From assembly GCA_047967505.1 (NCBI GenBank), contig CM106538.1: a stretch of DNA of 64,000 nucleotides. One strand, 5' to 3'. Below, in pieces: positions 8,191 through 46,887 of this stretch. Numbering within the stretch: the stretch's first letter is position 1; the number at the start of each line of letters is the position of its first letter. Source of the DNA: Dipteris shenzhenensis (lineage: Eukaryota). The notes below the pieces were generated by a model. It saw only the letters and a program-made list of their open reading frames with translations. It did not search any database and had not been told where the DNA came from. The position numbers were made by a program, and so were the translations under genes.

Positions 8191-8254
8191 GTCTCGAAAA
8201 CTTTGCTACAAAGAACCTCGCATCTCTTTACTCAACCATCACCCTGATGAGCCC

Positions 8255-20019: not shown

Positions 20020-21023
20020 ATGGATTCTGCTAGGTCTGCCTTCCACGATTTCATCTCCCATACTCCATTAATTGATAGAGAGGAGGAGTTATTTCCAATA
20101 TTTGATAAGAGCATAGATGTGCTAGGTACCTACTTGGGAGCCTGAGACGATTTTGAAGACATCATTACGTACATGCAAGACCACATCATGAGTTTTGCAT
20201 ATCAACTTAATGAGTCTACAAAAAGATGGGTCCCAATTGATTATTTGAAGTACTTGTTCAATCAAGAACCCATGTTCGTGAAGCGTTTAGATTGCTTTTG
20301 AGCCCAGCTCACACCCCTAGGGTTTAGGGAGGTGGACACTGATGACCTCCTAGCATGCGGAGTCATCGGAAACACAAGAAATAGGTTCCTATCCTAGGAA
20401 ATGACCTTTATTTTCCTTCTCCAGGAGGGACAAATGGAAGAGGAGGCCTCGACCTCAAGCCCTAACCCTGCCCCTGCCCTTTTCGATCCTCTTATTTCTG
20501 TAGATGAGCCCAACATCTACAATGAAGAGCCCATAGATGAAGAAGCTGAGGAGCGGGAAGCTACATTGGCCCTGGAAGTGCTCTAGCGACCTCCTGAACC
20601 CCATTTTACTTCTCAAATTTCATCCACCTCGGGCACCACCTCTGTTGACCCGCAACAATGATATGGTTTCTTGCTCCCCTTCTTGTTGATGGAGAACAAT
20701 ACCTCTTTCTCCATGACATAGAGGTTATGTTTGGTCTCTAGGAGGATGAAGCTCTTGGTGTCCTGTGTGGATACGAGGTGGACACGACTATGCAAGAACC
20801 TAGGTTTTTGGGAGCAGATGATTCAATAGAAGAGGTTCTTGCTTTAACACTGGCCCAAATCAAAGATGCAGAGACATCAATCTACTCCGACCTACCTGAT
20901 GTTCTAGAAGAAGCCTCCACATCTCACTCCAAATAGCAGGAGACCTCTGGATCCATCCTCATTGACAAAGAGGAAGGGATTGAGCATGATGACTCCATAG
21001 TGGTAAGAAACTATGAGCTTTGA
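20020..21023 (+). pseudogene. Acidic orphan protein gene (about 330 codons) in the transposon
   Basis: TATA-like tatatata at about 19943 and ATG at 20020. The frame MDSARSAFHDFISHTPLIDREEELFPIF... continues into ORF 20401 (EEPIDEEAEERE). It has stops and one frameshift near 20655. Confidence 0.45.
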
Positions 21024-21063
21024 ATTTCTTCTCTCTTGGTATACTTTTGCTTTAATGGAATTC

Positions 21064-21490
21064 TCATGTAATGTTGGACTGTTGCAGGAGGCATTTGAGG
21101 TCGACCTATTCTCATCTCGGCAACGCTTTGTTCACAGTAGCTTCAGTTGAGATTACTCACTGGCACATTACCTTGGCCAAGCAAAAGGGCGCTTTGTGGT
21201 GGTTATCCACAAAAAGTTCTCTCCACATGGCACTGATGACCTCCTAAAGTGCAAGGCCTTGTCACGAGTGATTGGTCATGCTGACATCAATTGCAATGCT
21301 GACAAGGTCATTTTGGTGAACCGCATGGCTGTCCTCAATGCCTTTGGAACCAATTTTCAAGGTATAGCATTGACGATAGCAGCCATGTCCCTAGCCAGCA
21401 CAATGACAATAGCGTTGACTCTCTATCGACTAGATTTAGAGCTAGAAGTGTATTTGGGAATTCAAAGCCTGATGTTCTCAGTGTTTTAGA
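21064..21490 (-). pseudogene. Small Cys-containing orphan ORF relic in the transposon
   Basis: The minus frame reads ..YCHCAG*GHGCYRQCYTLKIG..EVISAMWRELF..VDLKCLLQQSNIT*. TATA-rich DNA lies upstream at 21530-21555. Also present at about 31300-31697. Confidence 0.3.
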
Positions 21491-21903
21491 GAAGAGAGAA
21501 AGGCTCTAAAGCCTTATTGTATAGAAATTTTATTTTATATATACTTTTTATATAGTGCCCCATTTTGTGTTCTTTTACAAAATTTATGTTATCCTATCAT
21601 TGTATTTTGTAACTTTAAGAAGAATCTCATCGTGGCACAGAAGGCAAATGTGTTTGGCATCGTGCGGGAGCTCAGAAATGCCAAAACCCACTATGGCACG
21701 TATGAGGCGTGTTTCATCATGCCAAAACCCGCTATGGTGCGTATGATGCCTGTTTGACCAAACAGGCCTCATATGCACCATAGTGGGCATGTATAATAAC
21801 ATGGGAGCAGTAATAGAACATAAAAATATCTTTTATTCATTGGCCTCAAAGGGCAGAGATTTACAAAATGATTCAGGTTACACCAAATGAACCTAAACAA
21901 CAT

Positions 21904-22252
21904 CTAGGGCCTAAGGGAGGGATCGGAGTGGATGTGCTTGGCGAGTGCAAGGTCCTTGTCCATCACTGTTACTCTTTTGGCATGGATAGCACATAAGTTC
22001 CTGTCTTCAAAAAGACCTACTATCATCTGCTCAATTGCCTCCTGAATTGCTCTCATAGCACCTAAAGTGAAGTGCACATCATCCTTGTAATGTTGTGCTA
22101 TTTTACGTACAACACACTGGAAGGGTGCACGGGGAATGAGATTGTCCATAGTGGTTTGGAACTTGCGGATCTCCTGAAGTGCCTTCACGCCTGATTTTTT
22201 GTGCCTCTTAATCTTTGGGGGACCCTGCACTAGCCTTTGGACATGGCCCCAT
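21904..22252 (-). pseudogene. Histone H3-like fold, 5'-truncated (copy A)
   Basis: [70 protein letters not shown] aligns without gaps to the H3 histone fold. Confidence 0.92.
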
Positions 22253-23669
22253 GTCCATCAAATCATTGTGTGAGCACATGCTTCGAACCGAAAGACCCCG
22301 ACAATGTCTTGCACATGAGTTCACCTACCTTGATAAGCACATTAGACATTGAAACCTTCTCGAAAACTTTGCTACAAAGAACCTCGCATCTCTTTACTCA
22401 ACCATCACCCTGATGAGCCCCCTCAAGGGCTCATCACATGCAAAAAGATTGCACTGAGGATCAGTGCACATGATCCTTGTAGTGCCACACTGGTGGTGGT
22501 CTTTCAAGGCTGGCGCACATTTTGAAACGAGCTTGATGCGCCACTAGTGCTCATTTTTGCACCTCAATTTTTGAGGGTGCCATTTCTAGCCATTCTTTCT
22601 ACAGCCAATAGAATGCTGCCCGTTGGCACTGGCGTTGAGCTGCAATGCTTTCAGTCCTCTCTAGTTGGTACATAAGTAGATGGGCAAGCCAATCGAAATT
22701 GCCCAGCTTTGAAAGGCAGAGCTCTAGGCAAGTACTCAGAGCTCACGCAGATCTGTAATAAATGCTGAGACTACTTGAGCAATTTTAAACGTGTGAACTA
22801 ATCTATGTGATGGCACTAGTTGCACATTTGCCTCTTGTGTGCACTAGCTATCAGAGCACAGGATGGAGCACGGATCTCAATGCCCTTAGTGGACGGAGCT
22901 CCATACGTCGTACCATTAGGAGATTGGAGGGAAACTCGAACGTGGAAATATGAAGTTTAAGTTTGAGCACAAGGGATTGTTAGATTTCGCTTCTTAATGG
23001 AGGATTCGCATGTGGGGAAAAACATTGGGAAAGACTAAATGGGTGGGAGTAAAGAAAACTCGTGTGCATATGGGAAACATGCTTAAAAATTCGTGTTAAG
23101 TGTCTTTGAACGTTGAACGCTATTTCGCTGACTTTGGAATCAAAATTCATTATTAGATCAGAATCAACGAAGAACAGCCACGGGCATACGATTCAACCTT
23201 CAAATCACGAGCCATTTTTATCATTTCAATCCCATAGAAAACTTCGCGGAATCGGCAGCCCGCTGCAGTAAAGCGACGTAGAACAAGCAATAGCAGTCTA
23301 TCAAAGGAGTATAACGCCGTTATTTTGGAAGTCGAATACTTGCCCACCCCTGCAAGCGTTTGACCGGAAATCCCAGAAGGCCGCTGCGGAGCTCATCCGT
23401 AACCAATCTGCTGTTGATGAGAGTGCTATAGATGACCTCTTTACCATAATGCGAACAATTCTCTTCCTTCGGGCGCTGCTTGCTGCCTCCTTCCTCATAC
23501 ATCCTTTTATCCAGCTGCTGTGGGAATTATCTCTGCCTGCTATACTCAAATCTTTACTCAGATCGTAGGTACTGCGGTCTGTAAACGTTGTCTCGGCGGA
23601 AAAGCATTTGGAAGTGAGGGCGCGTCACAGTGGTCAGTGGTGCAAGAGCTACTTTAGCATTGTAAGTTG

Positions 23670-24074
23670 ACGGCTTCAAGCAGCAAGCCCTTGTGGCTTA
23701 TTGTAATCATCATTATGCTAGCACTCCCTGTTGATTCTCGCAGAATACAACAGCATCCTCACCATCGTGATCGAAGCCGCCGGAGAGAGCAGGGACAACT
23801 GCACCAAAGCCTCCCCACCTCGCCTGTTAGACTGAAGGCCAGCAGAGGATTGCATGCCCAAGCAAACGCCGATGAGGAAACAAGGCTGCTAGAAGTCACA
23901 AATCAGAGGGTGCCAGCGGGCCGGGCAGAAGACGTCGTTAACTCTAAAGTCCTTAGAACAGTTGTTGACGAAGGGCAGCTCCTCTTCCAAGCAGCAGTTG
24001 CTCATTTTCAATTCAGGAAACTCGTGCCAGTCTCAGGGCCGAGCCCAATAGGAAATTCTGCACCAGCGCCGTGA
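23670..24074 (+). pseudogene. CLE-like peptide precursor copy B with start codon ATG changed to ACG
   Basis: ttg acg gct at 23667-23675 versus ttg atg gct in copy A. The rest of the frame is open and the peptide motif is identical. Confidence 0.65.
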
Positions 24075-26907
24075 TTGTTTCAACCATTTCCAAGTTGACT
24101 CAAATATTAGAATTCCACAGTCCTGGAAATCAAGAAAATTTGAATCCTGCAGGCAAGCGTCATGCCAGCTGAGGTCTTGCAAGAAAGATGATATGACAGA
24201 TTGAGTAAGAAACGATGTTCTCTAGGACGGCTAGTTCATGATGAACTAGTCCAGACTCCAAACTCAGTGTGCACCAGAAAAGAGAGTCTGGAATGCTCAT
24301 GCGCGGGTGCCGGATGGAAGACCCTCTCAATTGCTTTGACAAGCACTTAATTTCTTAAAGGGACGGATTTTGTATGCAGAAGGGAGGAAAGCATATGCTT
24401 GAGTAGTATTCAAAGCCGTGGGTTTTTGCATCTCCTTTTGTCTTTCTTTTTAATTCATTCTTTTGGCATGTCCTATACTTCTAAATATGTGATTCAACAT
24501 TGAAAGAATAACTAGATTTGCGGCTGCAGGGAGCCTTTCCATCATGGAGCACGTAACTACTAACTCATAATTGAAACTGAATCCTACTATTTATCAAAAT
24601 TTTAAGGAAAAAAGCGAATGAGTAAAATAGTGGACATTAGACACAACAGAGGGTCCATTAAGACCCGATCCTCCCTGCAAATATCAGGGGTGGTGATTTA
24701 TTATTGATTTTGTGATGCCCATATTTTGAAAGCTGAAGTCCAACAAATACATGAATAAGGCGCTACAATAACTAATCCTCATTGCAATTTATACAATATT
24801 GTCAGATGGACTTTATATTCGTAATGCAACTTTAAAAATCGATATCTTGCACAAACCAGTCATGTAGATTTCTTTTTTTTTCTTCAAACGTGGAAAAATA
24901 GATTCTATCTATTATTCTTGAGCTATCCAAATACTTTAGGTATAAATTAGTCGGTGGATTGTTGGGTTCAAAGCCAAACTTGGAGAATATGTTTACAATA
25001 AAATTGGAAAAAAAAACCTTGCTAGAGGGACCCTTTTTGGCCACATATTTAGATGAATTCAATGACATATTCATGCCCCTAGGGGTGCTGACACTCTAGA
25101 TAAGTATAGCTTTATAGCTCAAGTCATATCCTGTGTTGCACTCTAGGCAACCGGGATGTGTAGGCTAGAGTGGTTCTTGGGTGTCTATGGTCTAACTTTG
25201 GCCTCTGTCGTGATCTCATCAGTGTGCTTGATAAGAGGGATTTCTGCTTTATAAGTGTTTCATTTTTGCGGCTGCAAGTTGTGTGCATTATATCGGATGA
25301 GGCCCAACAATTCCATCAATGTTTTAGTCGCAGTACCTGTCTAAGTATAGGAACCTGCTTCTAGACTAGAGGAAATGGGCAAATTATGTTTATATATGAG
25401 TCTTTCTAGCATAATTTTGTAGGAGAACATATATATATTATGAAGGACATAGTTTTCCATATATTGATCTCGAGTCATTGGGTAGAATCTATGGCTTAGA
25501 GGGCCATTACCTTGTCCAACTCACTCAAGAACCCATTGATGTGTGATACTGGTAGGTCTGCAAGCTTTGGAATGATTACACAACAGTGACGCGGATTCTT
25601 GAAACACTTGTAGGCTGAATCATCAACTATCATTTAAAATGTTGAACTCGTTAAGAGATCGAGATTTACAACCCAGCCATCCGAGATTACAACCCGACCA
25701 TCCACGCTTTGGGATTACCTTCCAGCAAGTGGGATTATGATCACAGAGACTGAGATTACCACCTTCCATTCTCTTCAACTTTGCATGGCAACTCCTATGC
25801 TTTCCTTTAATGTTATTTTGGGTGTTCTCTCAATCGAATCCTTCTTGTGGCAAATGTTTCATCTCTTCATGCTCTTTGAATATTTCTATTCTATGCCTAT
25901 ATAGTTGGTAGGGATAGGAATGCCATTTTATGCCTATATACATCTCTACTTTTTACTTTATAGAATTCTTGCTATTAAAAACACATTTAGCATGCTTGCC
26001 TATTCAAAACACAATTTAGATCCAATCCTCCGACAAATCACAAACTTTTCCTTGAGCTTGTCTATTGAGTGTCTATTGTTGTGTATCTAAGTGTCCATTG
26101 AGTTTCTGACATTAGGGGAGAATTAGGGTCTCCAAAGGGCCCCCAATTAGTGTTTCCTAATTTCAAGGGATTAGTGAGGTAATTGAGGTGTACCAATGGG
26201 AGTGCTCCTTTTTGTGGGGCAATGCCATGTTGAGGTGGAGGGTGGGCAGACCTGCAAGTAGCCCCTATTGGCTACTCCTCTTATATCGCGGACCACTCAA
26301 TCCATCCCCTGACCCTTCTCCCATATGCACCTCCCCCAAACAAGTCTACAAGTCATTCAAGAGGCGGTGGACCCTTCTGGGCAAAATTTTCCCCATCTCA
26401 GCTTGTTACAGGCCTGCCCCCTCCTCTTCTCTGGTCAAGCTCCATTCTCCCTCCATTTTTCAAACATGGGAGCTCATTTGGCATCTTCTTTGCCCCCTCC
26501 TGCTATGGTCCACTGTCTTTCTCCCTCTCCAGCACCTCCTGTAGCAGCTGCTCATTCCTCGCTCATTCTCTCTCCATTCCTAGCTACAGCACCTCCTATA
26601 GCAGCAGTTGCTCATCCCCCTCTGCTCTTTCTCCCTCCATTCCTAGCTACAGTATCTCCTATAGTGGCTGCTCATCCCCCTCTGCTCTTCCTCCCTCTAT
26701 TCCTAGCTACAACACCTCCTGGAGCAACTGTTCATCCCCCTCTGCTCTTTCTCCCTCCATTCCTAGCTACAGCACCTCTTGGAGTTTCTCTCAACCTTCA
26801 GTTGCACCCTCTATACCTTCTCCCTCTCTCTCTCCCTCTATTAGAGCTACTCTCCCTCCAAGCTGCACTTTATAGTCCACTATTGCTATTGTGACCTTTG
26901 TACAAGC

Positions 26908-27625
26908 ATGGTGAGGAGACCATACATGTACTCTGTGTCCCACATGAGCAAAAATGCACTGGGTGAATGGGTGCCTTGCACCTACAGCTTGAATGATTGG
27001 ATAGTCATGAGAGGATCTACCAAGGGTCCACATAATGTTCCCAAGAGCAAAAGAGGTGATCTTTTGCATGAATGAAAGGGCCGCATCATGAAGTTCAAGC
27101 TTGGGAAGAAAGGATGGCTTGCAAAGGTGCAACACATCTACATGGGAAAGGACATGCGCCTTCCTCCATCAAGCAATCAATCGACAATACCATCACATTG
27201 TAAGTCTACATTTTGTGTAAGATTTTGAAGTGTAATGAGTCAGTTTGAGTTTGAAATTGTATTTTGAAATAGCACTTGTGCATAGCAGATGTATTTCCTT
27301 CAAACTTTGAGGAGTGGAAACTAGTCGAGTGCTTCTTAGGTAAGTTTACTGCCATTCAGGAGGATTTAGGAAGGCAAATGCATTCTGGAGAGAAGTCCTC
27401 TGCTTTGAAACAGAGAAATATCTATTGGTGTAATGCCAAGTACATTACTCCAAGGACGGCATTAGGCTATGGGCATCTTCGATGCATTGCAACACCACAA
27501 CTTGAAGACATGGATTGCAGCATGGTGGACACAAGAACAGTGCAATCATACAAGGAAAAGATTGCAAAGGATGTGGGCATGGCTATGAAGTTTATGAGAG
27601 TGCTCTCAACAGAAGCAAGAACGGA
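26908..27625 (+). pseudogene. BAH-domain gene 5' exons, copy B
   Basis: Homologous to 13557-14275. Acceptor catagcag|atgta. ORF 27276 reads VFPSNFEEWKLVECFLGKF..IYWCNAKY. Confidence 0.6.
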
Positions 27626-30600
27626 AGAGGGAGAGAGAGAAACAGAGAGCCACACAAGTTTAGGTGGGTGCAAAACACCCTAATCTTCTTTTCCATTCAT
27701 TTATATATGTGTTTGAGTATTGTACATAACCGGGGTAAAGGTACAGTGACCTTTAACCCCCACAACCTCCCACTTAAAGGACAATGTGCCTTTAAGGGAG
27801 AACAACCGAGGAGCATACTATCCAATGCCCATCAATACACGACAATACTCAAACCGCTGACAAGGTAGACTCTTCGTCAGCATATCTATAGGGTTATCAT
27901 CTGTATGAACCTTGACAAGCTCTATGCGCTTGTCCTCAAGTACCTCCCTGATGAAATGGTACCTGACCTCAATGTGTTTGGTCCTAGCATCAAAGACCGA
28001 ATTTCGTGCTAGCTGAATAGCACTCATGGAATCACTATGCAATGTTGGTACACCTATATGAATCCCCAAATCTCCCACTAGCTGATCAAGCCATATAGCT
28101 TTCTTGAAACTCTCTATGGCTGCAACATACTCAGCCTCTGTGGTAGACAAAGCAACGCACTTCTGTGCACGCGAGACATCCACGACACTGCACCACCTGC
28201 AAAAGGTGAACACAACCAGAAGTGGATCTCATACTATCCACATGCCCTGCATAGTCTGAATCTATATACCCAAGTACATGCATGTCTCCTCTACCAAAGC
28301 AGATGCACATCTCCTTGGTACCCTTCATGTACCTCATGATGCACTTAACTGCCTCCCAATGCCTCTTTCTTGGATTAGCCATATACCGGTTGGTAACTCC
28401 CACTGCAAATGCAATGTCTAGTCTAGTGGCTATCATAGCATACATAAGACTCCCAACCACTGATGCATAAGGAACCTTGGCTATCATGGCCCTCTCCTCA
28501 TCTGATTTGGGACTATTTGTATGACTCAGTTTACAATATGGAGGCAATGGAGTACTCACTCCCTTCCCCCCCTCCATATTGAAACGCTGCAATACTTTTG
28601 CAACATACTCCTTCTGTGAAAGCCAAAGGAGTTTCCTACTCCGATCACGCGTGATGCGCACACCAAGAATATGACATGCAAGTCCCAAATCCTTCATATC
28701 AAAGGCCTCATGCAACTTGGCCTTTAATGCATCCAGCTCATAAGTATTCTTGCTATCCAATAGCATATCATCCACATCTAGTGCTAGGATTATCAGGCTA
28801 TTATCCTTAGCCCTTTTAGTGTAGAGGCAGTGATCAATTTCACTCCTTCTAAAACCCTCAGACCGAATGAAAGCATCAAACTTCTTATACCATTCTCTAG
28901 GCGCTTGCTTAAGACCATAGAGACTCTTCTTTAGCTTGCAAACTAAATGCTCTTTGCCCTTTTCTTCACAGACTTCCGGCTGCACCATGTAAATTTCCTC
29001 ATGTAGATCCGCATGCAAAAAAGTTGTCTTGACATCCATCTGCATAAGCTCCATATCCTCTGCTGCCACTAGTCCAAGCATGCATCTAAGTATGGTCATC
29101 TTCACAACCAGAGAGAATATCTCATCAAAGTCCACACCCTTCTCTTGCTTGAACCCTTTAGTGACTAAATGGGCCTTGTACCTAGGAACTTCATCACATG
29201 TGACCTTCATCTTGTAGACCCATTTACATGGCAATGCTCTCTTTCCATGTGGCAAAGACACCAAGTCCCAAGTCTTATTTTTCATAAGTGAACTCATCTC
29301 TGAGTGCATAGCATACTCCCACTTGCGTTGATCTTCGTGCATCATAGCCTCTCTGTAGCAAGAAGGCTCCCCGTAATCAGCAAGCATCACATAGTCTACC
29401 CCTAGAACAAACCTATCAAGTGGTCTAGACACTCTAGATGATCTTCTTAAGGACATTTCAGCTTGCTGTCTATCAACATATGCAGGTGGATTGACATCCT
29501 GGAAAGTGATTCTTCTCATTTCCACATCCCTCATGGGTGCCTTATGTGGGTGCCATATGCATCTTCTTCTCATTGAAGACTACATCATGGCTGCATATGA
29601 TCTTCTTTGCTTCTAGATCCGAGAGATGATGGCCCATCTCTCCACTTTCACCATAACCCAGAAAGATGCATTTCCTAGACTTAGGATCTAGCTTCTTTCG
29701 AAGCTCTTTTGGCACATGTGCATATCCCTCACACCCAAATATACGCAAATGAGAGTAAGAGGGCTTCTTGCCACTCCATGCCTCTTCAGGAATACCACCA
29801 TCCAAACTCTTACTAGGTGATCTATTGATCACGTGCACTACAGTTTTCATTGCCTCAGCCCAAAAACCACCAGAAAGACTTGCATTGGAAAGCATGCATT
29901 GCAACCTTTCTTGAATGGTACGGTTCATCTTTTCTACAACTGGATTTTGCTCTAGAGTATGAGGGGATCTGAGCTCCCTCTCAATCCCATGTGTATCATA
30001 GAAATGCTGAAAGTCATGAGAGAGATACTCTCCACCATTGTCAGTCCGTAGGCATTTAAGTGTTCTACCTGACTGATTCTCAACCAAGGCCAGCCATTTT
30101 TGAAATACCTGGAACACATCACTCTTCCGAGCTATAGGATAAGCCCACACTTTCCTAGTTGCATCATCAATGAATGTCACCTAGTATTCAGCCCCGCCTA
30201 ATGACCGTGTAGGCATGGGACCACATACATCTGAATGCACCAAATCAAGCTTTTCAAACTCTTTCTTTCCCCTTCTTTTATGGGCTGATTTAGTGTGCTT
30301 CCCATAGAGACAGTGCTCACAAAATTCAAAATCAGAGAAACTCAAATGCGGGGTACATAACCCAAACGGCATAAGAGTTTTATTCCATTCTGGCTCATGT
30401 GCCCCAACTTGCAATAACACAAAGAAGTACTTGGCTACTCGGTTATTGCAACAACATGATCAAACACGCCTGATACATGTAAGGGATACAAAGTCCCACA
30501 CTTGGCACCCTTGGCCAAAAGCATAGAGCCCTTCTGAATTTTCAAACTCTGAAATCCAAAAGTGGTGTGAAAACCAGCATCATCTAGTTGACCCACTGAA

Positions 30601-31048
30601 ATGAGACTCTTGGTGAGCTTATGCAGATGTCTCACATTTTTCAAAATAAATGCAGACCCATTTGCAAAAGAAAACTTTATGTCACCTACTCCCACTATGT
30701 CACATGCATAGTCATTTCCAAGATGCACACAACCTGTCTTTCCACTGTCATAAGTGGAGAACCATTCCCTATGGGGAGTTATAACATGGAATGAAGCACC
30801 AGAATCCAAAATCCAATCCATGGGAATATGCATCATCTGAAGTGGTAAGCAACTCTGCATATAAACTAGTAATGAAGAGAATGTCATTGTCACTATCATG
30901 TGTGACTGCATTGATCTCCTCGATCTATACTTTTCCTTTGTCCTCCCTTGGACTCTCTTCCTTCTTATTTACACCCCAATTGGCATTCTTTTTCTTATCC
31001 TTTTACTCTCTTTTCAGCTTGTAGCAATCCTTTTTCATATGGCCCTTC
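27626..31048 (-). mobile_element. Ty1/copia retrotransposon, copy B (5' part deleted)
   Basis: 3' LTR about 27626-27763, PPT (reverse complement AAGTGGGAGGT) at 27764-27774, RNase H (ALSTTEAEY, RTKHIEVRYHFIRE), RT ORF 28131..29573, integrase 29542..30180, protease DWILDSGASFH. Confidence 0.95.
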
Positions 31049-32208
31049 TACCTTTACCCCATTCTACTTCTCAAATTCCATCCACATCGGGCATCATCTC
31101 TGTTGACCTTGCAACAGTGATATGGTTTCTTGCTCCCCTTCTTGTTGATGGAGAACAATACCTCTTTCTCCATGACATAGAGGTTATGTTTGGTCTCAAG
31201 GAGGATGAAGCTCTTGGTGTCCTGTGTGAATACGAGGTGGACACGACTATGCAAGAACCTGGGTTTTTGGGAGTAGATTACTTTAATGGAATTCTAATGT
31301 AATGTTGGACTATTGCGGGAGGCATTTGAGGTTGACCTATTCTCATCTCGGCAATGCCTTGTTCGCAGTAGCTGCAGCTAAGATTACTCACTGGCACATT
31401 ACCTTGGCCAAGCAAAAGGGCACTTTGTGGTGGTTCAAAAAGTTTTCTCCACATGGCACTGATTACCTCCTAAAGTGCAAGGCCTTGTCACAAGTGAGTG
31501 GTCATGCTGACAAGGTCATTTTGGTGAACCGCATGGCTATCCTCAATGCCTTTGGAACCAATTTTCAATGTATGGCATTGACGGTAGTAGCCATGTCCCT
31601 AGCCAGCACAAGGATAATAGCGTTGACTCTCTATCGACTAGGCTTAGAGCTAGGAGTGTATTTGGGAATTCAAAGCCCGATGTTCTCAGTGTTTTAGAGA
31701 AGAGAGAAAGGCTCTAAAGCCTTATTGTATAGAAATTTTATTTTATATATACTTTTTATACAGTGCCCCATTTTTTGTTCTTTTACAAAATTTATGTTAT
31801 CCTGTCATTGTATTTTATAACTTTAATTGTTGTTGGCATTAATATTTTCATTCACTATTCTGTTCAAAAGCATGGTATCAGATAAATTTTTGCACTATAA
31901 TGGTCATTTCTTAGCAATACAATAAGAATCTCATCATGTTGCAGAAGGCAAATGTGTTTGGCATCGTGCAGGGAGCTCAAAATTGCCAAAACCCACTATG
32001 GCACGTATGAGGCCTGTTTGGTCATGCCAAAACCTGCTATGGTGCGTATGAGGCCTGTTTGACCAAACAGACCTCATATGCACCATAGAGGGCATGTATA
32101 ATAACATGGGAGTAGTAATAGAACATAAAAATATCTTTTATTCATTGGCCTCAAAGGGCAGAGATTTACAAAATAATTCAAGTTACACCAAATGAACCTA
32201 AACAACAT

Positions 32209-33324
32209 CTAGGGCCTAAGGGAGGGATTGGAGTGGATGCGCTTGGCAAGTCCAAGGTCCTGGTCCATCACTGTTACTCTTTTGGCATGGATAGCACATA
32301 AGTTTGCATCTTCAAAAAGACCTACTGTCATCTACTCCATTTCCTCCTGAATTGTTCCCATAGCACCTAAAGTGAAACACACATCATCCTTGTAATGCTG
32401 TGCTATTTCATGTACAACACACTGGAAGGGTGCATGGGGAATGAGATTGTCCACAGTGGTTTGGAACTTGTGGATCTCCTGAAGTGCCTTCACGCCTAAT
32501 TTTTTGTGCCTCTTAATCTTTGGGGGACCCTGCACTGGCCTTTGGACATGGCCCCATGGCCGCTTGTTCACTTTGAACTTCTTTCACCTCTCCTCCCTTG
32601 CAACCACCTCTTCAGACTCCTCTTCCTATGTCTAGTGGGTCTTTTGAGGTGGCTTGTCACTCTTAGGGGTCTTCTTTGTCCTTGGTCTCTTTTCCTTTTC
32701 ATGAGGCTATGAGACAGCAAGCTGAGGCTCTTGCTCAGCTCGTACTAGAGGCTCCTCATATGTGATAATATTGAGGCACAGAGGGTTGATGGTGCTCTTC
32801 CGTGCTGTCTAGTTGGTTGGAGGATTGGAGCCAAGGTTCATTATATCTGCAAGCCTGCCAAATACTTCCTCTTGTTGTGGCCCCTTTAATCTCTCCATCT
32901 CCTCTCTTTTCCTTTCTTGCTCCCCTTGTTGGTCTAGATGCTCCATGCTAGGACCCCACGAAGGAGGGAGGGGCAGTTGATCATGATTGATTAGACTATT
33001 TTGCCCCTCTTGGGAGACCTCTCCACTTCCACGGTTAGTTGTGTGGAAGGACTAAGAGGACACCTGATCGTGCTTGGATCCTTCATCGTGTTGGGATTCC
33101 TCATGGTGCTGAGATCCCTGGGATCCCCCATGAGAGTCAGATGGTGGGGACTCGTGTTGCTTGGACTCCTGATGATGAGAACTGCCTTCAGATCCCTGCT
33201 GATCATTGCCCTCTTGGCCACTGGGGCTTGTAGTGTGTTCGAAAGCCATAGAGTTGTCAGGAGGAGAGCGGGTAGTGTCTAAACGATGTCTAGTGGGTCT
33301 AGCAGTTTGTTTAACTTGTGCCAT
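32209..33324 (-). pseudogene. Full-length long-tailed histone H3-like gene (371 codons, single frame, about 7 nonsense codons)
   Basis: Starts MAQVKQTAR (cf. H3 MARTKQTAR). The same frame continues through TN*TARKST (32791-32817) and RTKKTPKS to the fold ..[30 protein letters not shown]. Confidence 0.88.
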
Positions 33325-33412
33325 AGAAATGAGGGATTTTAGGGTTTTGAAGTGCTTTATATAATCTTTTTTAAAGCACTTTAAGGTTTTTCTTTTAAAT
33401 TAGGGTTTTTTG
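33325..33412 (-). promoter_or_regulatory. Putative promoter of the H3-like gene (TATA box and two telo-boxes)
   Basis: The minus strand reads AAACCCTAA...TATATAAAG...AAAACCCTAAAATCCCTCATTTCT-ATG. Confidence 0.5.
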
Positions 33413-33604
33413 AGTGCACCCCCTCCCCCCCAAATCTATTGTCGCCAGTTCGGTAATACTTAATCTTCACCACCCTCCCTCCCAACCCACTCACCCCTCC
33501 GCCCTGCCATGTCACACATGCAATTTTGCAATTTCCAAACAAATTTGTGAATTTTGTAATCTATAATTGACTCAAAATAGTGTTAACTTTATTCATCAAA
33601 CATT

Positions 33605-35332
33605 TTACATTTGGGTCTCTCTTAGGACCCAACGCCTCCCTTGTCTGACTCTACTTTGCAACCAAAGCGCAACCCCTTGGCTCCCTATTGAGGACTTCCA
33701 AGCACAACATCTCCTTGTCTTCTTGACATGTTGAACTGCTTTTGCGAGACTTGAGACCTCTACCTTATCGCGCTTGAGAGTCCTGGCCTCTAGACATCTA
33801 TAAAACCAGTCGAACATTTCGTGTAGTGCATTGCTTTGCGTGATACCACCCCCATGCATTGTATTCTTGAAGTATGTTGCCTTTGCTCTATAGTGCGATT
33901 TCTCCATTCCTTGAGTATTCCAAATGGACAGAGGGCCCCATTGCTCCACAAATCATGATGCATGTGCATAAAGAATATGCTATAAAGAAAAACATTGTAT
34001 TAGAAACATAAACTGACTCAAGTTTAAAGCACAAAATTTCAACCTAAGGAGGATTACCATGTAATTTGTAATATGTGACTCCCCCCATGCTTCAATGATA
34101 TGAATTCTCCTAATGATGTCCTAAATCTCTCATAATAAAGCTCATCTATTTGACCTTGTCTAAGCAAATTTATAAATGCATCAATCTTTGTCCATAGTTT
34201 TGCTCTCAAAGTAGCAATTTGTGGATGTGAAGCTTGATTTGTAGTGCACTCACACAAAGCTTTCCAATACTCCTAACCTAGGGTGCTTTGAGTGAATGTA
34301 TGTTTTTCTTTATCAGCATTGTGGTTGGACAAGAACCTCCTTGCCTTTCCTCCACCCATGGACACTTAGCAGGAAGATTTTGTGTCTTTCCTGATTGTTT
34401 CTTGTCCTACTTAAGCTTCACATTACCTCCATGAAGTCCCATTAGTGAGAGTAAATCTTCAGCTTTTGCAATGCATTGTGCAGATACTTGTTGTGGCCTC
34501 AAATCCCAAGCATAAACTAGATGGAGATAGAGTAAGTCTAGGGTCCTTCAACACTTCCATGACATCACTTGGCTTTATTAAACTTCTTAGAACATATCAA
34601 GGATCACTATCATCCATTTCCATTGTTCCCATCACATCCTCCATGAAATTCCTATAGTAGAGTACAAATGAGTCTTAGTGGAAACAATGCAACGCCACGA
34701 ATATTTTGGAGTAAGAAATTTCATTGAAAATTTGGGGAACTAACCTTGCAACCCGTGTTCTCCTCTTTTGGGCACCACTATTCATTGACAATGCATCCAT
34801 AGATTGCAATTGTCTTTTCCTCTCCTTCAGTCTCAAAGGTGTTCCCTTCAACTTTGTACTCATTCTATTGACTTCTCTCGTTCCTTCTCCACAGCACGTT
34901 GAACTTGGCCATAGATAGACCTTTCCAAATCTTGTTTGCTTTCAGTGAGCTTCTAGATTGATTATTCCAATTCATGTCGCTCCAAGTCCAATGCATGTGC
35001 TTTGTCACTAAGTTCTTTGTTTTGCAATTGGAGATCCTACATACTATTATGCATTGCCACAATAGTAATATTTCCCAACTGTGCAAGTTCTTATGCTTGG
35101 ACTCTTTGCACCTCACTTGCTTGCATAGCCAATGTCTAAGAATGGTTCAATTGATTGCAATAACCGAGCAATCCAATATGTCCCTTGCCAACAAAAATGG
35201 TAAGCCGGTGCTGAAGCCTGGCTGAAGCCTCTGGCTTCCAATACATGCTTGAGATGTACTAACATTCATCGCACTTCTTGTGTGCTTAACAAGCTTAGTT
35301 ACGATATGCTCGGTTTCCAAACTTTTTTGCAT
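33605..35332 (-). pseudogene. RAG1/Transib/Chapaev-like DDE transposase with a 78-bp intron
   Basis: IFNEISYSKIFVALHCF, VSMGGGKARRFL (cf. RAG1 MNGNFARKLM), and AWGESHITNYM^HILYAHAS*FVEQWGPLSIWNTQGMEKSH (cf. RAG1 ITNYFHKTLAHV..GSIGAWASEGNESGN). GT-AG intron 33980-34057. Stops and frameshifts present. Confidence 0.75.
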
Positions 35333-35439
35333 GGTCTTTTGGAGCCTTTCCTAGATTTAGGTCCTAAACCCTAAACCCTTGAATAAGTAGTGTATTAAAC
35401 CCTTGCGAGCGATGTATTGTTCTCCCAACTATGGCTTAG

Positions 35440-35815
35440 ATCAAAAATTGTGTTCTTGTGACTGAGTTCAAGTGTTTGTTACCCACTTGGAATTCACATG
35501 TTATTTGTAAGATTGGTGTACATGATTTTCGGTGTGTTGTTGCTATATAATTTATTGTTTTTGTATCGTGTTTTTTCCCCTATGCTTTTGTCAGTAGTAA
35601 ATTCTACCCATGCAATAAAGAGTTTCTTTTTCATTTCGGACCCTTTGAATATCCTATCCACACCATTCACAATGCCATCATTGATGTCAAGGTTTCTTGT
35701 GGATATTTCAATAATCATATCTACTTTCACCTATAGCTGCTCTTGTAGTCCACTTGTTTACCTTAGGTCACTTGGGATTGTCATTATTTTGCTGTATGTT
35801 TTTTGTTTGGTGTCC
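35440..35815 (-). pseudogene. Pif1-family (Helitron-type) helicase fragment
   Basis: TSGLQEQL*VKVDMIIEISTRNLDINDGIVNG...IAWVEF..KSIGEKTR matches the Pif1 N.D..DG.VNG region. Confidence 0.65.
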
Positions 35816-36099
35816 TTAGCTGTAAGAATGTGTGCCTCTCCGAACATCATGCACTGTATGAAAAGGAGGACTCTTTTGGGTGGCAAGGTCTAAAGGATAC
35901 AAATTTCCATCCACCCAAAGGTCAAGATGCTTCTTCCCTTGCAATCAAAGACTGTGGAGCACACTTTGAGGAGTTCCACTATATCCCAAACAGTGTGTGC
36001 TTGTATATTCTACCTCCAGTTGTAAGTTCACATGGTACTTGTTGGATATGTCCTCTGGTGCCATGAGTACTCAAAGAGAGGTATCAGTGATGCAGGCTA

Positions 36100-36490
36100 A
36101 AATGTAGGGGAGAGCTGGCAAAGATGGAGCAGTGAGAGGGAGAGAGTAGCAAGGAAGAGGGAGGAGGAGAAGCAGATGAGGGCAAGAGGAAGAGGAGGAG
36201 AGTAGGGCAACAGGTGTAGAAGGGAGGGAAGGAGCTACTGTAGAAGGCAAGAGGAGGGGAGAGATACTACAAGAGGGAGGAGGAGGGGAGAGGAAGGAGG
36301 GAGGAGGAGCCAGAAGAAGGAGGAGGAGGGAGGAGGAGGAGCAAGACGGAGAAGGGGAGAGGAGGAGGGAGGGGGAGGGAGGGAGAGGGAGAGGGAGGAG
36401 GAGGGAGGGAGGGAGGGAGGGAGGGAGGGAGGAGGGGGAGGGAGAGAGAGGGAGGGAGGGAGAGAGAGAGAGGGAGGGAGGGAGGGTGAT
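36100..36490. repeat. GA-rich low-complexity tract, (GGGA)n/(GGA)n
   Basis: Directly visible polypurine tract. Confidence 0.9.
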
Positions 36491-39381
36491 TCGAAATTTG
36501 AAATTCAAATTTCAAAAAGTGGCCTCCTCCCCTCATTGATGGGGGGAGAGGTGGGTGTAAATGTGGGCTTAACCCACCTAGGTTGGGCTGGTTAGGCCTC
36601 TTTGGGACCCTCCAAGTCCCTTGCATTAGCCCACTAAGCATTCCCTATTCCATTCCTTATGAGGCCCTTTTGAGACCCCAATTATAAGTTTGGAACATCT
36701 TCCTCATGCTCACATTGATTGCAATGATTTGCAAAGCATAGCTTCTCTTAAGACACATTTGAAGATATCTCTCAACAAATTTGTGTCTTGAAACAAAATG
36801 TTTAATACAACATAAAACCCACTTTATAATTTGTTGCCTTTAGAACTTCATGACTTGAAGATGCATAAGAACTTAGATGTGTATTCCGATACGATGCAAT
36901 TTTAGTGTTTATCTCTTGAAATTTCTTCCATCTAGTCTTATATCTAGTTTTTAGCTATATTCCATGACTTTGACTTCCATATTTCATTTGTTTTGAATAA
37001 TCATCCCTTGCATTATTGAATGTGGTTCATTGTCTTTTTGCAAAGTGTACTTGTATTCTTCATATGGCTTCTTCTACATCAACGCTCCCAGCCACAAGCT
37101 TGCATGCACCTGAGAGGTTCTTAGCATGGGAAGGTGGCACAAAATGCACTGTCCAAAACATTTACGGCTTTTAGTGGTATATGACACCTATTTCAAAACT
37201 TAAAAAATTATTACAATGATAAAATATGCTTTTTGACTCTTACAATATTGTAAGTTCATTAAAGAACATTGATATTTTTTAAAAAAACATATATTAAGGT
37301 ACATAATTTGTGCTATAAGTAATGTGCTATGTGCTTTCATAAAGCACAAAAAGCATGTCACCTAATGATGCTTAGACCCAAGAAGTCCCACACTAAGGGC
37401 ACATGACCTATAAGAGAGGATGAGAGAGATGAGGAAGCTTCACTATCCACTCATGTGGAGCAAGCCAAAGCGAAAAGACAGACCCTACCGGAGGTTGTTC
37501 CTTCATTCATTGGTATAAAGTTCATTGTAACAGTTGTACTTTACCCACGGTAGTGACTTCCTTTAACCACAGTAGTGACTTCCTACTCATTGAATCCCTT
37601 TTGTGTTTGCATAGTCTTCTAAAAACCAAAGAATACTCGTTGTATCATGATGAAGGCACAAAGAAGCATTGTTATTTGTGCCTAATGTGGCAGTGTAGTA
37701 AGAAGCATGAGGAGATTTATGGTCGGTGTGCTTTTAATTAACACAAACAATGTGAGCATGATTTGTCTCCCATGGCGCCACTCTAGGAGGACCCATCCCT
37801 AAGGGCAGATGTCCTCGAAGCCACATAGTCAATCCTTGACATCGAGATCAATTGTTAAAATGCTCGTGTGATGCCGAGCTTAGGTGTGATAATTCTCACA
37901 ACCAAGCATGACACAGAGATAGGGAGGCTATAAGAGCAGCATGGGATGCTCTTCCTAATAAGACGCAGAGATAGGGAGGCTATAAGAGCAGCATGGGATG
38001 CTGTCAAGTTGGGGAAAATAGATGGGAGGCAAGATTGGATAGGTTCTATGTCTCTCAGGGTTTACTAAACAGTCACTTATCTTTAAAAGTAGAAACTTTC
38101 TCTTCTTTAAGTTTATCAAACCATAAACCTATCTCATTAGATGTGATTTTGGGCCTAGGGATAGGAATTCTTCTTTGATAAAGATGACCAAAAGCTCTTC
38201 TTATTGAAGAGTGTTCAAACTCTAATTGGTAAGGCTTGGCATAATGCTTTTTCTAATCACATTTCTGCTTCAGAAGCTTGGACTTTGGCTGTTCACGATA
38301 CTCAAATCATCTTTAAAATAGCTAGAAAGAAAAGAGCTAAGATTAGGGCTCAAAGAATGGATAGAATTCAGAGTAATATCAGTGTTTAAGAGTAGAAAGC
38401 TAGAACTAGAGATGTAGATGCCCAAAAAGAACTAGTAAGGGATAAAAAGGACCTCAGGAAGCAAGAACAGATCAGATTAAATGATCATTCCAAAATATAC
38501 TTCAGGGACTGGTGGGCAGGGAAGATAGATAGACCCACTAAGGAAACTTTTAGAATAATAAGAAGAAAGAGAATGAAGGGGGAGATCCCCCTTCTTAAAA
38601 AACCAAATGGCTCTTACTCTGTAACTACAGAAAGAGAATATTGATTTCACTCAGCAACATTTTCACAATTTATTATCTAGTACAATCACCCCAAACCATG
38701 ACATCTAGAGAGCTAGAAGCTATGTCAAATTATAAGGGAGAAAGCTGTCAAATGGTTTGATCTACCCTATTTGGAGAGACCCTTTACATAAGAAGAGTTG
38801 AAGGAAGTAGTGTCAGTTATGGTAGATGGTAAGACACCTAGTGAGGATGGGCTACCTATTGAGTTTATAACTCTTTCTGGAAACTAGTTGGCCCTTATCT
38901 TTTACTTCTATGGCAAGAAAGTTTGGTGAAAGGTGCTCTCCCCCTACATACCAATCGGGGCATTATCAAACTGATCCCAAACAAGGGCCCCAAGGATGAG
39001 CTTAAGAACTGGAGACCCTTAACAATGCTAAACTACATCTATAAGATTTTTGCAAAAGCTCTAGCTCTTAGGGTGCAAGGATGAGCTTAAGAACTGGAGA
39101 CCCTTAACAATGCTAAACTGCAGCTATAAGATTTTTGCAAAAGCTCTAGCTCCTCTTAGGGTACGAGGCAAGATGAAAGAGTGGATTCTCTCTTAGCAAA
39201 AGGGGTTTATTAAAGGACATCACCTTCTTGAAGCCATAATTAACAGCTGGGAAGGGTGTGAGTATGCTAAATAAACTAGGCAAGATATCTACTTTCTTAA
39301 AGTAGACTTTGACAAGGCTTATCATATACTGGAATGAGATTTCATAATCCAATCTTTACAGGACATGGGTCTAGGTCCTTC

Positions 39382-42299: not shown

Positions 42300-43169
42300 T
42301 CATCATTCCCACCAACTACTAAGATATGGTACCACAACCTTGGTGGTGGATTGGCTTGTGCATTAATCTTGGCTCTTAGGATGGGACATTCATTTGCTGA
42401 ATGATTGGCCATGCAATGTGGACACCATACATTTTCTCGCCTTGGATCTTGGGGCACCAACTCAATATGTGATATGTTACTACCCTCATTCGAAATCTGG
42501 GGTATGGGGGGACAAGGTCCATATATAATATCCATTGCTTTCCTTAAAATTTTTCAAATATGCAACGAAAAAATATGAAAATTTCATGTCCCCCCTCCCA
42601 CAAAATATAAGGTATATACCTTGAAAAATATGCAAGATTTTAAGATTTGTACATATTTCTCATAATATGTGAGGCCCAAGGGGGGGGGGGGGTCTTTGTG
42701 GATGAGGGGGGCTAAAACAAAAAACACAATAAAAGATGAAAACCCATCTCCTTTCAAATTAATGTAACTTTTTCATGTGTTAGCTAAATTTCAAGATGTA
42801 AAGACATATTTGAAGCTATTTTAGTATAGAACACAACCATGTTAATTTGAATAATTTCTCCTCATGGCATATTGTTAAATTCATCTCATACTCAAGATTT
42901 TGATAGGTTTTATTTCTAAAGGGAGTTGGTGCCCCAAGCCTTGGATAAGTCAAAGGTGGCGGCTCAGACATGTTAAGCTTTTTTTCCATGGCATGCATCA
43001 TCTCTTCTCTTAGCTTCATGGTCATGGCCTCTAGGCGATCTTCATTAGGAGTGCAAATGGTGCTCAATGATGATGTGTCACTGTGGGTTACATGTAGTGA
43101 TGATGTGACACTATGCCTAGCAAGAGGTGTGCTAATGGAACCCTGTGCTGAGGTGGCAGGAGTGGTCAC
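42300..43169 (-). pseudogene. gag-like fragment with Zn knuckle, split by a MITE
   Basis: After removing the MITE: ..EDRLEAMTMKLREEMMHAMEKKL..PLTYPR|RENVWCPHCMANHSANECP. Confidence 0.55.
42448..42938. mobile_element. MITE, 491 bp, perfect 16-bp TIR, 8-bp TSD CCTTGGAT
   Basis: CTTGGGGCACCAACTC...GAGTTGGTGCCCCAAG. A second copy lies inverted at 59180-59638. Confidence 0.95.
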
Positions 43170-44949
43170 ATGAAATGACTATGGAGCACTGTGTGTGTGT
43201 GCAGAGGTCAGTGCTAACTAGACAGTTGAGGTGGCACTGCTGAGGTGGCACAGATGATGTGGCAATGATGACATGTCACTGATGACATGGTAGTGGTGAT
43301 GTGGCAGTTGACGTGGTAGATGATGTGGCTATGCTGATGTGGTAGATGATGTGGTTGTGATGACATGTCAGTCAATGGTGACATGGCAGATAAAGTGACA
43401 TGGCAAGCTGACTGCCTTGATGATGTGGCATAAAAGGAGATAATGCCACGTGTCATAGGGAGGAGATAATGGGATAAGGCCATGTGTCAGGCTCTAGTGC
43501 ATCGAAATCTAGGAGATTCTAGTGGTGAGGATTCCGTCACTTCGTCATCTGAGAATTTCATCGTGTAGAGCTGCTAAGGCTCTTAAGAGCTTTGCGTCAT
43601 GCGCTAGAGCTTGTTGCTGGAGCCTTCATACGCTGGCGTCACATGCAGGCTTTGAAGCTCTGTGAGTAAAAGCTTGGCACCGGGCTAGCACTCTGAGCAG
43701 TGCTCCTTTCATCGATGGAGGCGAGCGCCTGTTTGCAAGGTGTTGCAGAGTTACGGGAAGCGTTGTTGAAGGACTGAGCCTATATGGCAGAGCCTTTGAG
43801 GCTTGGAGTGAAGGAGCACTTGCAGGTCGATGTTGATGGAGCTTAGGTATGGTTGGTGCTTTAGCTCATTGGCTGAGTGACTGGATTGTCATGTAGGGGG
43901 CTTGAAGGCATAGCGATGGAGGCGGCTTAGCGCTGTGGGGAGCCACTTTGTGAAGCGGGCTAGCAGAGAGCTCGTTGGATCTTGTTGATGGTCGTGGAGT
44001 TGTGTTGCCTCCGTATGGAGTTGTGGATTGATGGAGACATTTTGTTAGGACACAGTTGTGGCTCTATGGCATTGGAGGCTAGCTTTCCGGTTGTAGAGAG
44101 GTGGCACTTGGGTTGGAGCCTTCATTGAAGACTCATTATATAGGCGGCTGTTAGAGCTATGGCAGTCTCATTGGCATTTGATTTGCCCTTGGAGCAAGGG
44201 CTGTTTGTAGGCAGCCGGTCATGGAACGTATGTTGCTGAGATTGGGAACCGCTATCTTGTAGTTGAGGTTGTCCCTTTGGTTTAGAGGCTGCCAGCCACT
44301 TCCTCGGGCCACTTAAGACTTGGAGAAGCTTGTGAGAGGTTCTGTTGCTTTGTCTCTTAGAATGGAAAACCTTAGAATGGAAGGAACAGAAGAACTCTCT
44401 CTTCCTATATAAATTGGTGCTTTCAAAGCTCTCTAGCTCTCAAATCATTCATGAATCTCTCATGAAATGTATGATCTCTCCCTATATCTCTCTCTTAGAG
44501 TACTGTCTTTCTCTCAAGAGCTAGATCTCTCACAAAACAAGTGAACGGAAATCTTCAACTCTCATGGATGGAAATTTTCTATCACTCATCGGAAGTGAGA
44601 GAACTCTTGATCTCTCAATCAATCACACTCTCTCATACTCTCACAAAGAAAGATGGCGCCTCAATGAAAGGCAAAACCATGCTCTGATACCATGACAAAA
44701 TATGAAGAGGGGAGAGGAGAAGAGTGGAGATGAGGAGAGAGGGCACAGGTAGAGAGCACACCACAAATGACTAACTGTACGCTAGATTTAGTTGAAAAAA
44801 TAGAATATATACAAACGCATATAGGGTTAGGGTTAGGGGATCTAACCCTTTCCTTTATAGCACTCTATAAGGTTAGTGCTATGCACATATGATCATGTGA
44901 TGGTGCTATGCACACATGATCACATGATGTTGAGTGTGAACTCTCAACA
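43170..44949 (-). mobile_element. 5' half (LTR, PBS, long leader) of an LTR retrotransposon, inverted relative to its 3' half
   Basis: LTR 44693-44949 is the reverse complement of 49723-49968. PBS TGGTATCAGAGC at 44681-44692. Confidence 0.85.
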
Positions 44950-46429: not shown

Positions 46430-46887
46430 GGGTTGGAGTGGTGTCCTTGGGCATACCAACAGAGCTGCCTCCAATCCTACCAACAACAGGACTTGACAGG
46501 GCAAAGTGACAGTGTTTTAGCTATAAGATCATCCAAATGGGGACATGGAATTTCAAAGGAGGCCTCCAAGGGAATTGCAAGTGTGGAGGATATGAATGCA
46601 GTGGTATCCCTGCAAAGATGGCAATAGAGCCCCTTCAACATTGTGTGTTCCATGTTTCTAGGGATAGTGGAAGCACCTATGAAGTGCATGTCAAGACAAA
46701 TCCCTTATGTAGTTGTCCTGAATTCCAAAAAAGAGATGTGGCATACTTGGCTTATAAGCACTTGTACTATGTGTTCCTTCATGTTCTAGGGTTACGTAAG
46801 AGTGAAGATATGTTCATTTACCAGCCAATCATTTCATCCACACAAATAGCATCACTGCTTAGTGTGTGTAGACCCAACACGGTATGA
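46430..46887 (+). pseudogene. SWIM zinc-finger protein fragment, probably transposon-derived
   Basis: STYEVHVKTNPLCSCPEF..AYKHLYYVFLHVLGL matches the SWIM CxC..CxH motif with one Cys lost. About 65-bp tandem repeats follow at 47100-47290. Confidence 0.65.

Follow-up and report, generated by a model that had tools for sequence, protein, structure and literature searches.

Results

A degenerate transposon with a histone H3-like gene

We analysed a 64,000-nucleotide stretch of contig CM106538.1 from Dipteris shenzhenensis (assembly GCA_047967505.1; hereafter, the window), which contains a decayed element at positions 26121–36683. The element is bounded by terminal inverted repeats (TIRs) and carries, from left to right, the remains of a gene termed ORF2 (for open reading frame 2; plus strand), a histone H3-like gene (minus strand) and a transposase gene (minus strand). 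It is probably a dead cut-and-paste transposon of a family remotely related to RAG1 and Transib, with a gene set consisting of transposase and ORF2 and, in part of the family, an H3-like gene. The pairing of transposase and H3-like gene recurs on metagenomic contigs; this recurring synteny is the new and stronger evidence, and a dead, RAG1-related transposon with an H3-like gene of its own is well supported.

Inverted 19-mers delimit the element

The left end consists of AATT followed by a 19-bp TIR (26121–26143, plus strand; tandem duplicate at 12761–12783), the right end of a 19-bp TIR followed by AATT (36661–36683, minus strand). The 19-mers themselves (26125–26143 and 36661–36679) form an inverted pair identical at 16 of 19 bases, or at 20 of 23 when the AATT that lies immediately external to both is counted. 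With up to two mismatches allowed, the 16-base core GGGTCTCCAAAGGGCC was found three times in the window (12766 and 26126, plus strand; 36663, minus strand), against an expectation of 0.05 from shuffled sequences, and none of 100 shuffles gave three sites. Two of the sites represent the duplicated left end, leaving a single left and a single right end. About 45–60 bases inward of both, another short inverted match is present (TTAGTGAGGTAAT against TTAGTGGGCTAAT). Proceeding inward from each end, approximately 150 bases are followed by a CT-rich tract of about 400 bases and then by an inward-facing ATG. On the left, a CT-rich subterminal tract with ~60-bp repeats (26290–26870, plus strand) precedes the ATG at 26909; on the right, its mirror image (36110–36500, minus strand), GA-rich on the plus strand and CT-rich when read inward, precedes the transposase ATG at 36063. 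An earlier, sequence-only reading of the window had described imperfect 19-bp TIRs with AATT outside both, as well as mirrored polypyrimidine/polypurine tracts, and both descriptions agree with the positions and the core count against shuffles found here.

The termini start with (A/G)GGGTCTC, not with CA. Beyond them, the flanks have only AATT in common, as the fifth bases differ (GAATT versus AATTA), and because AATT is palindromic, a 4-bp target site duplication (TSD) is indistinguishable from two extra TIR bases. The repeat status of the region was assessed with X1, a single small DNA run from public archives that has no recorded library type, comprises 1.95 Mb of contigs and contains 9% of the window words. 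Its contigs were aligned to 22300–38000 at a likeness of at least 80%. Depth was 0 over 22300–25967 and 36972–38000 and positive over 25968–31207 and 31732–36971, with values of 15–39 at the left end, 70–313 over a nested copia element, 9–14 over the H3-like gene and 5–9 over the transposase. The likeness of the 252 aligned contigs ranged from at least 99% to below 90%. Such a pattern would be expected from a diverged repeat family with its limits close to the two 19-mers. No RNA run was present among the listed runs containing the stretch.

We also considered that no transposon with these limits exists, and that chance inverted 19-mers surround a decayed host gene cluster caught in a tandem duplication. 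Even though we estimate that about one inverted match of 20 of 23 is expected by chance in 64 kb, the core motif count far exceeds that in shuffles, and the 19-mers lie symmetrically outside mirrored tracts and inward-facing genes. Likewise, while the two "copies" of the element are a tandem duplication that includes flanking sequence, and only one insertion is known, X1 depth drops to 0 in both flanks and the transposase family and its partner ORF2 were found together on unrelated contigs (see below). We therefore regard this explanation as highly improbable.

The transposase is probably a remote relative of RAG1

The transposase gene (33605–36063, minus strand) is a pseudogene that matches residues 10–96, 138–188 and 540–796 of an 843-residue relative encoded on a metagenomic contig (L013). 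Residues 10–96 correspond to window positions 36040–35837 and 35210–35142, on either side of a 651-bp insertion, residues 138–188 to 34875–34726, and residues 540–796 to 34547–33770. Residues 189–539, which include both D residues and a C-x2-C motif, are gone from the window, and 180 bases remain in their place. In addition, an in-frame TGA occupies the position of a W in relatives, and a frameshift lies near 34070–34100. The gene contains one intron (approximately 33956–34036), with relatives showing the split between ITNYM and HILYAH; the window keeps HILYAH and QGMEKSH, while the C-x2-C region is deleted. This transposase copy is dead several times over. The claim of the sequence-only reading that both copies of the element are dead is thus confirmed by the missing DD core, the insertion and the stop codons, and by a nonsense change in the H3-like gene of the second (B) of two tandem units (A and B; see below).

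To find relatives, the C-terminal part of the transposase was translated across two stops and an intron and used as a query (P0001). Among 1.84 billion representatives, 114 relatives were found at E ≤ 1e-3, of which 54 reached E ≤ 1e-10, mostly short ORF fragments, with no database name other than "hypothetical protein"; no relative was found among viral contigs. No Pfam family fits the transposase, and a search of the Atlas with the transposase ORF returned unnamed eukaryotic clusters only, the nearest named one being DUF4218 at 0.77, which we take as a lead only. When compared with the Protein Data Bank (PDB), a profile built from 11 relatives matched 15 sequences at E ≤ 10, all of which were RAG1 (best E 1.8e-4), in an alignment that spans about 120 residues up to the region of the last catalytic E. 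An AlphaFold model of a 604-residue relative was weak (predicted local distance difference test [pLDDT] 57); in Foldseek, the matches listed for this model down to rank 40 were all RAG1 (best 9.9e-5), followed by HzTransib (0.037) and BbRAGL, the amphioxus RAG-like protein (0.062), all with template modelling (TM) scores of about 0.26.

Three intact relatives on metagenomic contigs, L013 (843 residues), L014 (699 residues) and L015 (527 residues; the latter two open at the 5′ end), display the hallmarks LDESE, AGDLK, C-x2-C, H-x4-H and QGMERSH. The C-x2-C motif reads PCLYCM in L014 and PCLFCM in L015, and the H-x4-H motif reads MHILKVH or MHILLVH ahead of QGMERSH. L014 and L015 thereby exhibit the C-x2-C and H-x3-4-H motifs by which the CMCT group is delimited in the text of Kojima 2025 (PMC12730594). 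Based on sequence and model comparisons, the transposase appears to represent a Pfam-less family related to RAG1/Transib at a remote level only. The "RAG1/Transib/Chapaev-like transposase" proposed by the sequence-only reading consequently stands as regards a remote RAG1/Transib likeness, but its lineage is not fixed and its Pfam matches stay below threshold.

A diverged, long-tailed histone H3

The H3-like gene (32209–33324, minus strand) starts with an ATG at 33324, which in unit B is placed 280 bases below the stop of the transposase, and encodes a histone fold at approximately 32209–32583; an intact ORF for this fold is present in unit A (21904–22257). The unit A fold ORF matched the Pfam family Histone (PF00125) with 91.4 bits (cut-off 26.4; E 6.5e-26), and its best PDB relatives were H3.1 (E 7.7e-28). 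The fold is 45–58% identical to the closest H3s, and nothing above 58% was found among 5.8 billion proteins. The unit B ORF begins with MAQVKQTAR, agreeing at seven of nine positions with P0177, a database protein named histone H3. Beyond this H3-like start, the protein continues into a long tail of unrelated sequence in which S, Q, E and H abound, and the window copy has P at the H3 K9 position. The long-tailed H3 on the minus strand noted in the sequence-only reading is thus a bona fide histone-fold gene with a non-H3 tail.

In unit B, the fold carries a CAG-to-TAG nonsense change and many CpG-type transitions. Comparing the fold copies at 32227–32583 and 21904–22257, we observed several sites that are CG in unit A and CA or TG in unit B; these differences follow the deamination pattern of methylated CpG and are concentrated in unit B. 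CENH3/CENP-A proteins are recognized by a longer loop 1, in which H3-type residues are lost. The window protein aligns to H3 without a loop-1 insertion, and we therefore rejected a CENH3 identity for this gene.

The H3-like gene recurs beside related transposases

Metagenome contigs were searched with the transposase alone (alignment A4), yielding 17 loci (L001–L017) that are 32–64% identical to the C-terminal part of the window transposase. In tblastn with the window fold, three of the 17 (L011, L014 and L015) showed an H3-like fold on the transposase strand, downstream of that gene, with Pfam Histone matches for L011 (E 3.7e-31) and L015 (E 7.3e-34). At L001, an ORF located 278 bases below the transposase has the same first 10 residues as P0177, then diverges and runs off the contig. 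At L005, the contig breaks off at the end of a long basic/acidic ORF whose last residues, KFKPGTVA, correspond to the beginning of the H3 fold region; we take this as no more than suggestive of an H3-like gene. The distance from the transposase stop to the H3-like ATG is 108–282 bases in L001, L011, L014 and L015. All five tails keep the H3-like start and have the remainder replaced, and the reading frame of the fold is open in unit A, L011 and L015. Among the other 12 loci, eight have less than 1 kb of sequence downstream.

The L014 and L015 transposases are 64% identical, with a nonsynonymous rate (dN) of 0.272; for the H3-like genes of the same two loci, dN is 0.263 and the synonymous rate (dS) 1.24, giving a ratio of 0.21 that comes from a single pair with dS near saturation. 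The L015 protein contains a 15-residue loop-1 insertion and W in place of F, and its best PDB matches were CENP-A chimeras and Cnp1; the L014/L015 branch, but not the window protein, therefore looks CENH3-like. In a tree with 42 database H3s, L014 and L015 were joined (support 100/99), while the window and L011 proteins formed long branches in a polytomy.

Taken together, these sequence comparisons support the view that the H3-like gene belongs to the element family and did not come to lie there by chance nesting. As regards the sequence-only reading, the co-occurrence of H3-like gene and transposase that it had proposed to look for was seen, in the same order and on the same strand, at three of 17 loci, with two more showing only the start or tail, and is missing from L003, L004, L013 and L017; the dN/dS comparison that it had suggested is favorable for L014 versus L015, within the limits of one nearly saturated pair.

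The H3-like gene might nevertheless be a passenger, that is, a host H3 that was transduplicated and amplified without serving the element. Capture and amplification of H3 by hAT transposons has been published (Dhillon 2019, PMC6710886), no H3-like gene is present in the closest relative, L013, or in L003, L004 and L017, and stop codons mark both window copies and the L014 copy. Yet position, strand and spacing recur beside transposases that are only 32–52% identical to that of the window. Moreover, while the H3 tree cannot show a single origin, the fold is only 45–58% identical to any H3 and still open in unit A, L011 and L015, its dN/dS is 0.21 with a dN equal to that of the transposase, and all five tails retain the H3-like start but swap the rest. 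On balance, we consider a passenger role unlikely.

Two further features of these loci concern regions beyond the H3-like gene and the contig ends. After the H3-like gene, a third ORF follows on the plus strand in L014 (3059–3238; MVRRKITPRR) and L015 (2713–2856; MVRVKKTPTR); the two are 41–45% alike, both run off the contig ends, and by their sequence they could encode another basic-tailed element protein. No convincing TIRs were detected in L003, L004 or L013. In L013, a 16-mer, GGTCAATACCAAGCGA, occurs four times within 4937–5151, in both orientations, near one contig end and just beyond the start of ORF2; these copies look like subterminal repeats of the L013 element.

ORF2 is a conserved partner of the transposase

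In L002, L003, L004 and L013, the gene next to the transposase is ORF2, which is encoded on the other strand and made up of two ORFs (about 400–525 and about 145 residues) that are alike among the four loci. ORF2 profiles matched the plus strand of the window at 21151–21486 (E 5.8e-13), 31287–31694 (E 8.9e-4) and 31141–31233 (E 0.012, upstream motif; hmmsearch). The window element thus retains ORF2 remains at 31141–31694 (plus strand), convergent with the transposase, and a better copy in unit A (20649–21486, with the C-terminal domain at 21151–21486). ORF2 has no Pfam family, and an AlphaFold2 model of its C-terminal domain gave no fold (pLDDT 42). Because the profiles match the plus strand of the window, the "acidic orphan" (plus strand) and "Cys orphan" (minus strand) of the sequence-only reading are pieces of ORF2; coding remains are indeed present, but they belong to one plus-strand gene and not to two separate orphans.

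Behind the left CT-rich tract, gene 1 (26909–27625, plus strand; unit A, 13557–14272) comprises exons at approximately 26909–27200 and 27273–27625 with an evident GT..AG intron between them; the copia element interrupts it. The sequence-only reading had taken it for the beginning of a gene encoding a BAH domain, a Zn finger and a ubiquitin-like domain. None of the three domains could be substantiated. Searches for BAH gave no match in Pfam (every ORF of exon size, E up to 1–5), in PDB by phmmer (E up to 10), in a homologue search among longer proteins or among the named clusters of the Atlas, although these were made exon by exon, as the exons are in different frames, and a very divergent split domain could escape them. 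No Zn or PHD domain was matched in Pfam, PDB, homologue or Atlas searches. The ubiquitin-like candidate (ORF 19513–19818) matched only DUF7537, at E 0.0022 and below the cut-off of that family, and gave no PDB match at E up to 10. Furthermore, gene 1 matched no known family, and tblastn with its exons revealed no relative in the 17 loci. Gene 1 may be the 5′ part of ORF2.

These results bear on the idea that the H3 mimic and a BAH-Zn-ubiquitin-like reader form a matched pair directed against silencing or used for targeting. An inward-facing plus-strand gene does start behind the left CT tract, the X1 depth of 15–39 over the gene 1 region marks it as part of the repeated unit, and exons 1 and 2 look partly BAH-like by eye. 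However, no BAH, PHD or ubiquitin-like match emerged from Pfam, PDB, the homologue search or the Atlas, the exons are unmatched in the 17 loci, the sequence at about 14275–19229 is copia, and the partner conserved in the family is ORF2, a protein with no known domain. A matched pair is therefore very doubtful.

Tandem duplication and nested insertions

Self-BLAST showed that positions 8192–22253 are colinear with 22358–32558 at 91–98% identity. The first unit (A; 8192–22253) of this ~14-kb tandem duplication holds the left flank and the left two thirds of the element; the duplicated stretch extends about 4.5 kb beyond the left end (8192–12760 corresponding to 22358–26120). What had been read as "copy A" ends at 22253 because the next tandem unit starts there. 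The supposed two independent copies are thus one locus duplicated in tandem together with its flank; it follows that the window contains one insertion and one TIR pair, and that comparing A with B is uninformative on transposition.

The copia insertion invoked by the sequence-only reading was recovered in both units. It is a nested Ty1/copia retrotransposon (minus strand), truncated in unit B (27626–31049) and located at approximately 14275–19229 in unit A, with long terminal repeats of about 140 bp (starting at 14275, and at 19089–19229 and 27626–27764) that were found by a search finer than self-BLAST at default settings. The 651-bp insertion in the transposase gene (35196–35846) is private to the window copy: an X1 contig joins 35195 to 35847, and the insertion is missing from the L013 protein alignment. 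An ORF inside it (35494–35730, minus strand) resembles the end of a Pif1/Helitron helicase by eye; this reading found no support in Pfam and was discarded.

The window is densely populated by transposons and repeats outside the element as well. Tandem arrays were seen at 5777–7230 (~187-bp units, 79–87% alike), at 2607–3930 (~362/145-bp units) and at 36–301 (48-bp unit). To the right of the element, inverted repeats of about 490 bp (42446–42936 and 59182–59640; 85% alike, 16 kb apart) enclose a second inverted pair (44692–44950 and 49722–49969; 92–96%), which in turn surrounds a copia-type reverse transcriptase ORF (48022–48825; RVT_2, E 3e-66). The outer repeats (42446–59640) possibly delimit a large TIR element with nested insertions. 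A further reverse transcriptase ORF lies at 51297–51848 (minus strand; RVT_1, E 1.2e-17).

Discussion

A family with a transposase, ORF2 and, in part, an H3 variant

We suggest that the window element is the remnant of an old single insertion at 26121–36683 that would have been altered later by the copia insertion, the 651-bp insertion, a deletion of roughly 1 kb in the transposase core and partial copying in the ~14-kb tandem duplication. The gene set of the family probably consists of a transposase and a convergent ORF2, to which some members add an H3-like gene 108–282 bp downstream of the transposase on the same strand. This gene retains the beginning of H3 with its K4 position, followed by a long unrelated tail and a complete H3 histone fold.

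Several observations weigh against this interpretation. As to the ends, there is a single TIR pair, without a second insertion, an empty site or an unambiguous TSD (AATT being palindromic); none of the 17 metagenomic loci contains the terminal motif seen in the window (up to three mismatches); the ends are not CA..TG as in most CMCT elements; and the X1 depth, taken in bins of about 520 bp from a single small run, does not fix the exact ends. As to the transposase, Pfam RAG1 stayed below threshold in two of six longer relatives (15.8 and 14.2 bits; cut-off 25), both matches falling on the same profile positions, and the full-length L013 and L014 proteins gave no Pfam RAG1 match. The fold model is weak, as judged by its pLDDT and TM values, and the RAG1 similarity is remote; PDB matches include no CMC-type transposase structure, so that the comparison does not separate Transib from another CMCT lineage. 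As to the H3-like gene, none was seen within 1.2–2.5 kb downstream of the transposase in L003, L004, L013 and L017. In L013, which is the closest of the full-length relatives, ORF2 comes immediately after the transposase and no H3 occupies that place; the H3 link therefore applies to only a part of the family. In addition, the L014 H3-like gene carries one in-frame stop (TGA), constraint is gauged from the one pair given above, and the polytomy in the H3 tree is compatible with one capture as well as with several.

What the H3 variant might do

How an H3 variant could serve the element can be outlined only tentatively. An H3 variant made by the element might enter nucleosomes or act as a tail decoy, and might thereby alter the marking of element chromatin, the window copy having P at K9. 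Alternatively, it might assist a RAG-type transposase that lacks a RAG2-like reader of H3K4me3. Either mechanism, a change in chromatin marking or aid to the transposase, is conceivable, and we would not at present count on it.

In a broader and similarly speculative form, a widespread, Pfam-less RAG1/Transib-related branch might use its own H3 variant, with the K4 end kept and the rest of the canonical tail lost, as a working part, one branch of it being CENH3-like. Such a variant might build nucleosomes that refuse silencing marks, or might supply in cis the H3-tail signal that the RAG2 PHD finger couples to RAG1 in vertebrates. If this were true, RAG-type recombinases would have been tied to H3 tails long before RAG2, and the element itself would supply the substrate of silencing, unlike elements with VANC, SET or TET/JBP or with a passenger H3. 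It would also connect RAG-type transposases with H3 tails in a way that can be tested.

Comparison with known systems

Transib, RAG1 and ProtoRAG are the only solved structures matched by the family profile and the fold model, and the last catalytic E of RAG1 stands in the same H...H...E setting as in the present family. In ProtoRAG, the genes face inward between TIRs, as they do in the window element. Transib and RAG1 produce a 5-bp TSD, whereas the TSD of the window element is at most 4 bp and its ends lack CA. Furthermore, in contrast to RAG1/ProtoRAG, the element has no RAG2-like gene, and instead carries the H3-like gene and ORF2. The CMCT group has TSDs of 2–5 bp and, "in most cases", 5′-CA..TG-3′ termini (Kojima 2025, PMC12730594); AATT (4 bp, palindromic, from one insertion) lies in this TSD range.

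The superfamily Lanisha was named from the moss Ceratodon purpureus, where it shows enrichment on the V chromosome; it is said to resemble EnSpm (PMC8245031; GenBank MT647524). Kojima 2025 (PMC12730594) counts it with the lineages in which C-x2-C and H-x3-4-H motifs are shared with RAG1/Transib. Lanisha is a DNA transposon of plants whose transposase is EnSpm-like, and the shared motifs are those found in the intact relatives of the present family. The window element may belong to Lanisha. The gene set of transposase, ORF2 and H3-like gene is that of a poorly described lineage, which may be Lanisha. No publication reporting an H3 gene in EnSpm, Chapaev, Transib or Lanisha-type elements came to light in our literature searches, although Repbase Reports or supplements may describe one.

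A precedent for H3 amplification exists in Dothideomycete fungi such as Pyrenophora, Pseudocercospora and relatives, where hAT transposons captured and amplified H3; in P. fijiensis every amplified copy had been rendered inactive through repeat-induced point mutation (RIP), and in P. tritici-repentis many are potentially active (Dhillon 2019, PMC6710886). The fungal case likewise involves a DNA transposon that amplifies H3-derived coding sequence. The fungal H3 is a captured housekeeping gene, while the gene described here is diverged, long-tailed, fixed in position and, in one pair, constrained. Pfam detected no hAT domain in the neighboring transposase, which is RAG1-like. The work of Manning 2013 is reportedly another source on H3 capture by hAT in Pyrenophora and related fungi. 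The present finding belongs to the general kind in which a DNA transposon bears a gene acting on its own chromatin state. Other transposons are known to bear chromatin genes, such as VANC in VANDAL/MuDR, TET/JBP in KDZ, Plavaka and others, and SET in HarbingerS and MuDR of oomycetes (Kojima 2025, PMC12730594). VANC, SET and TET/JBP are regulators or enzymes, whereas the cargo of the element described here is a core histone variant.

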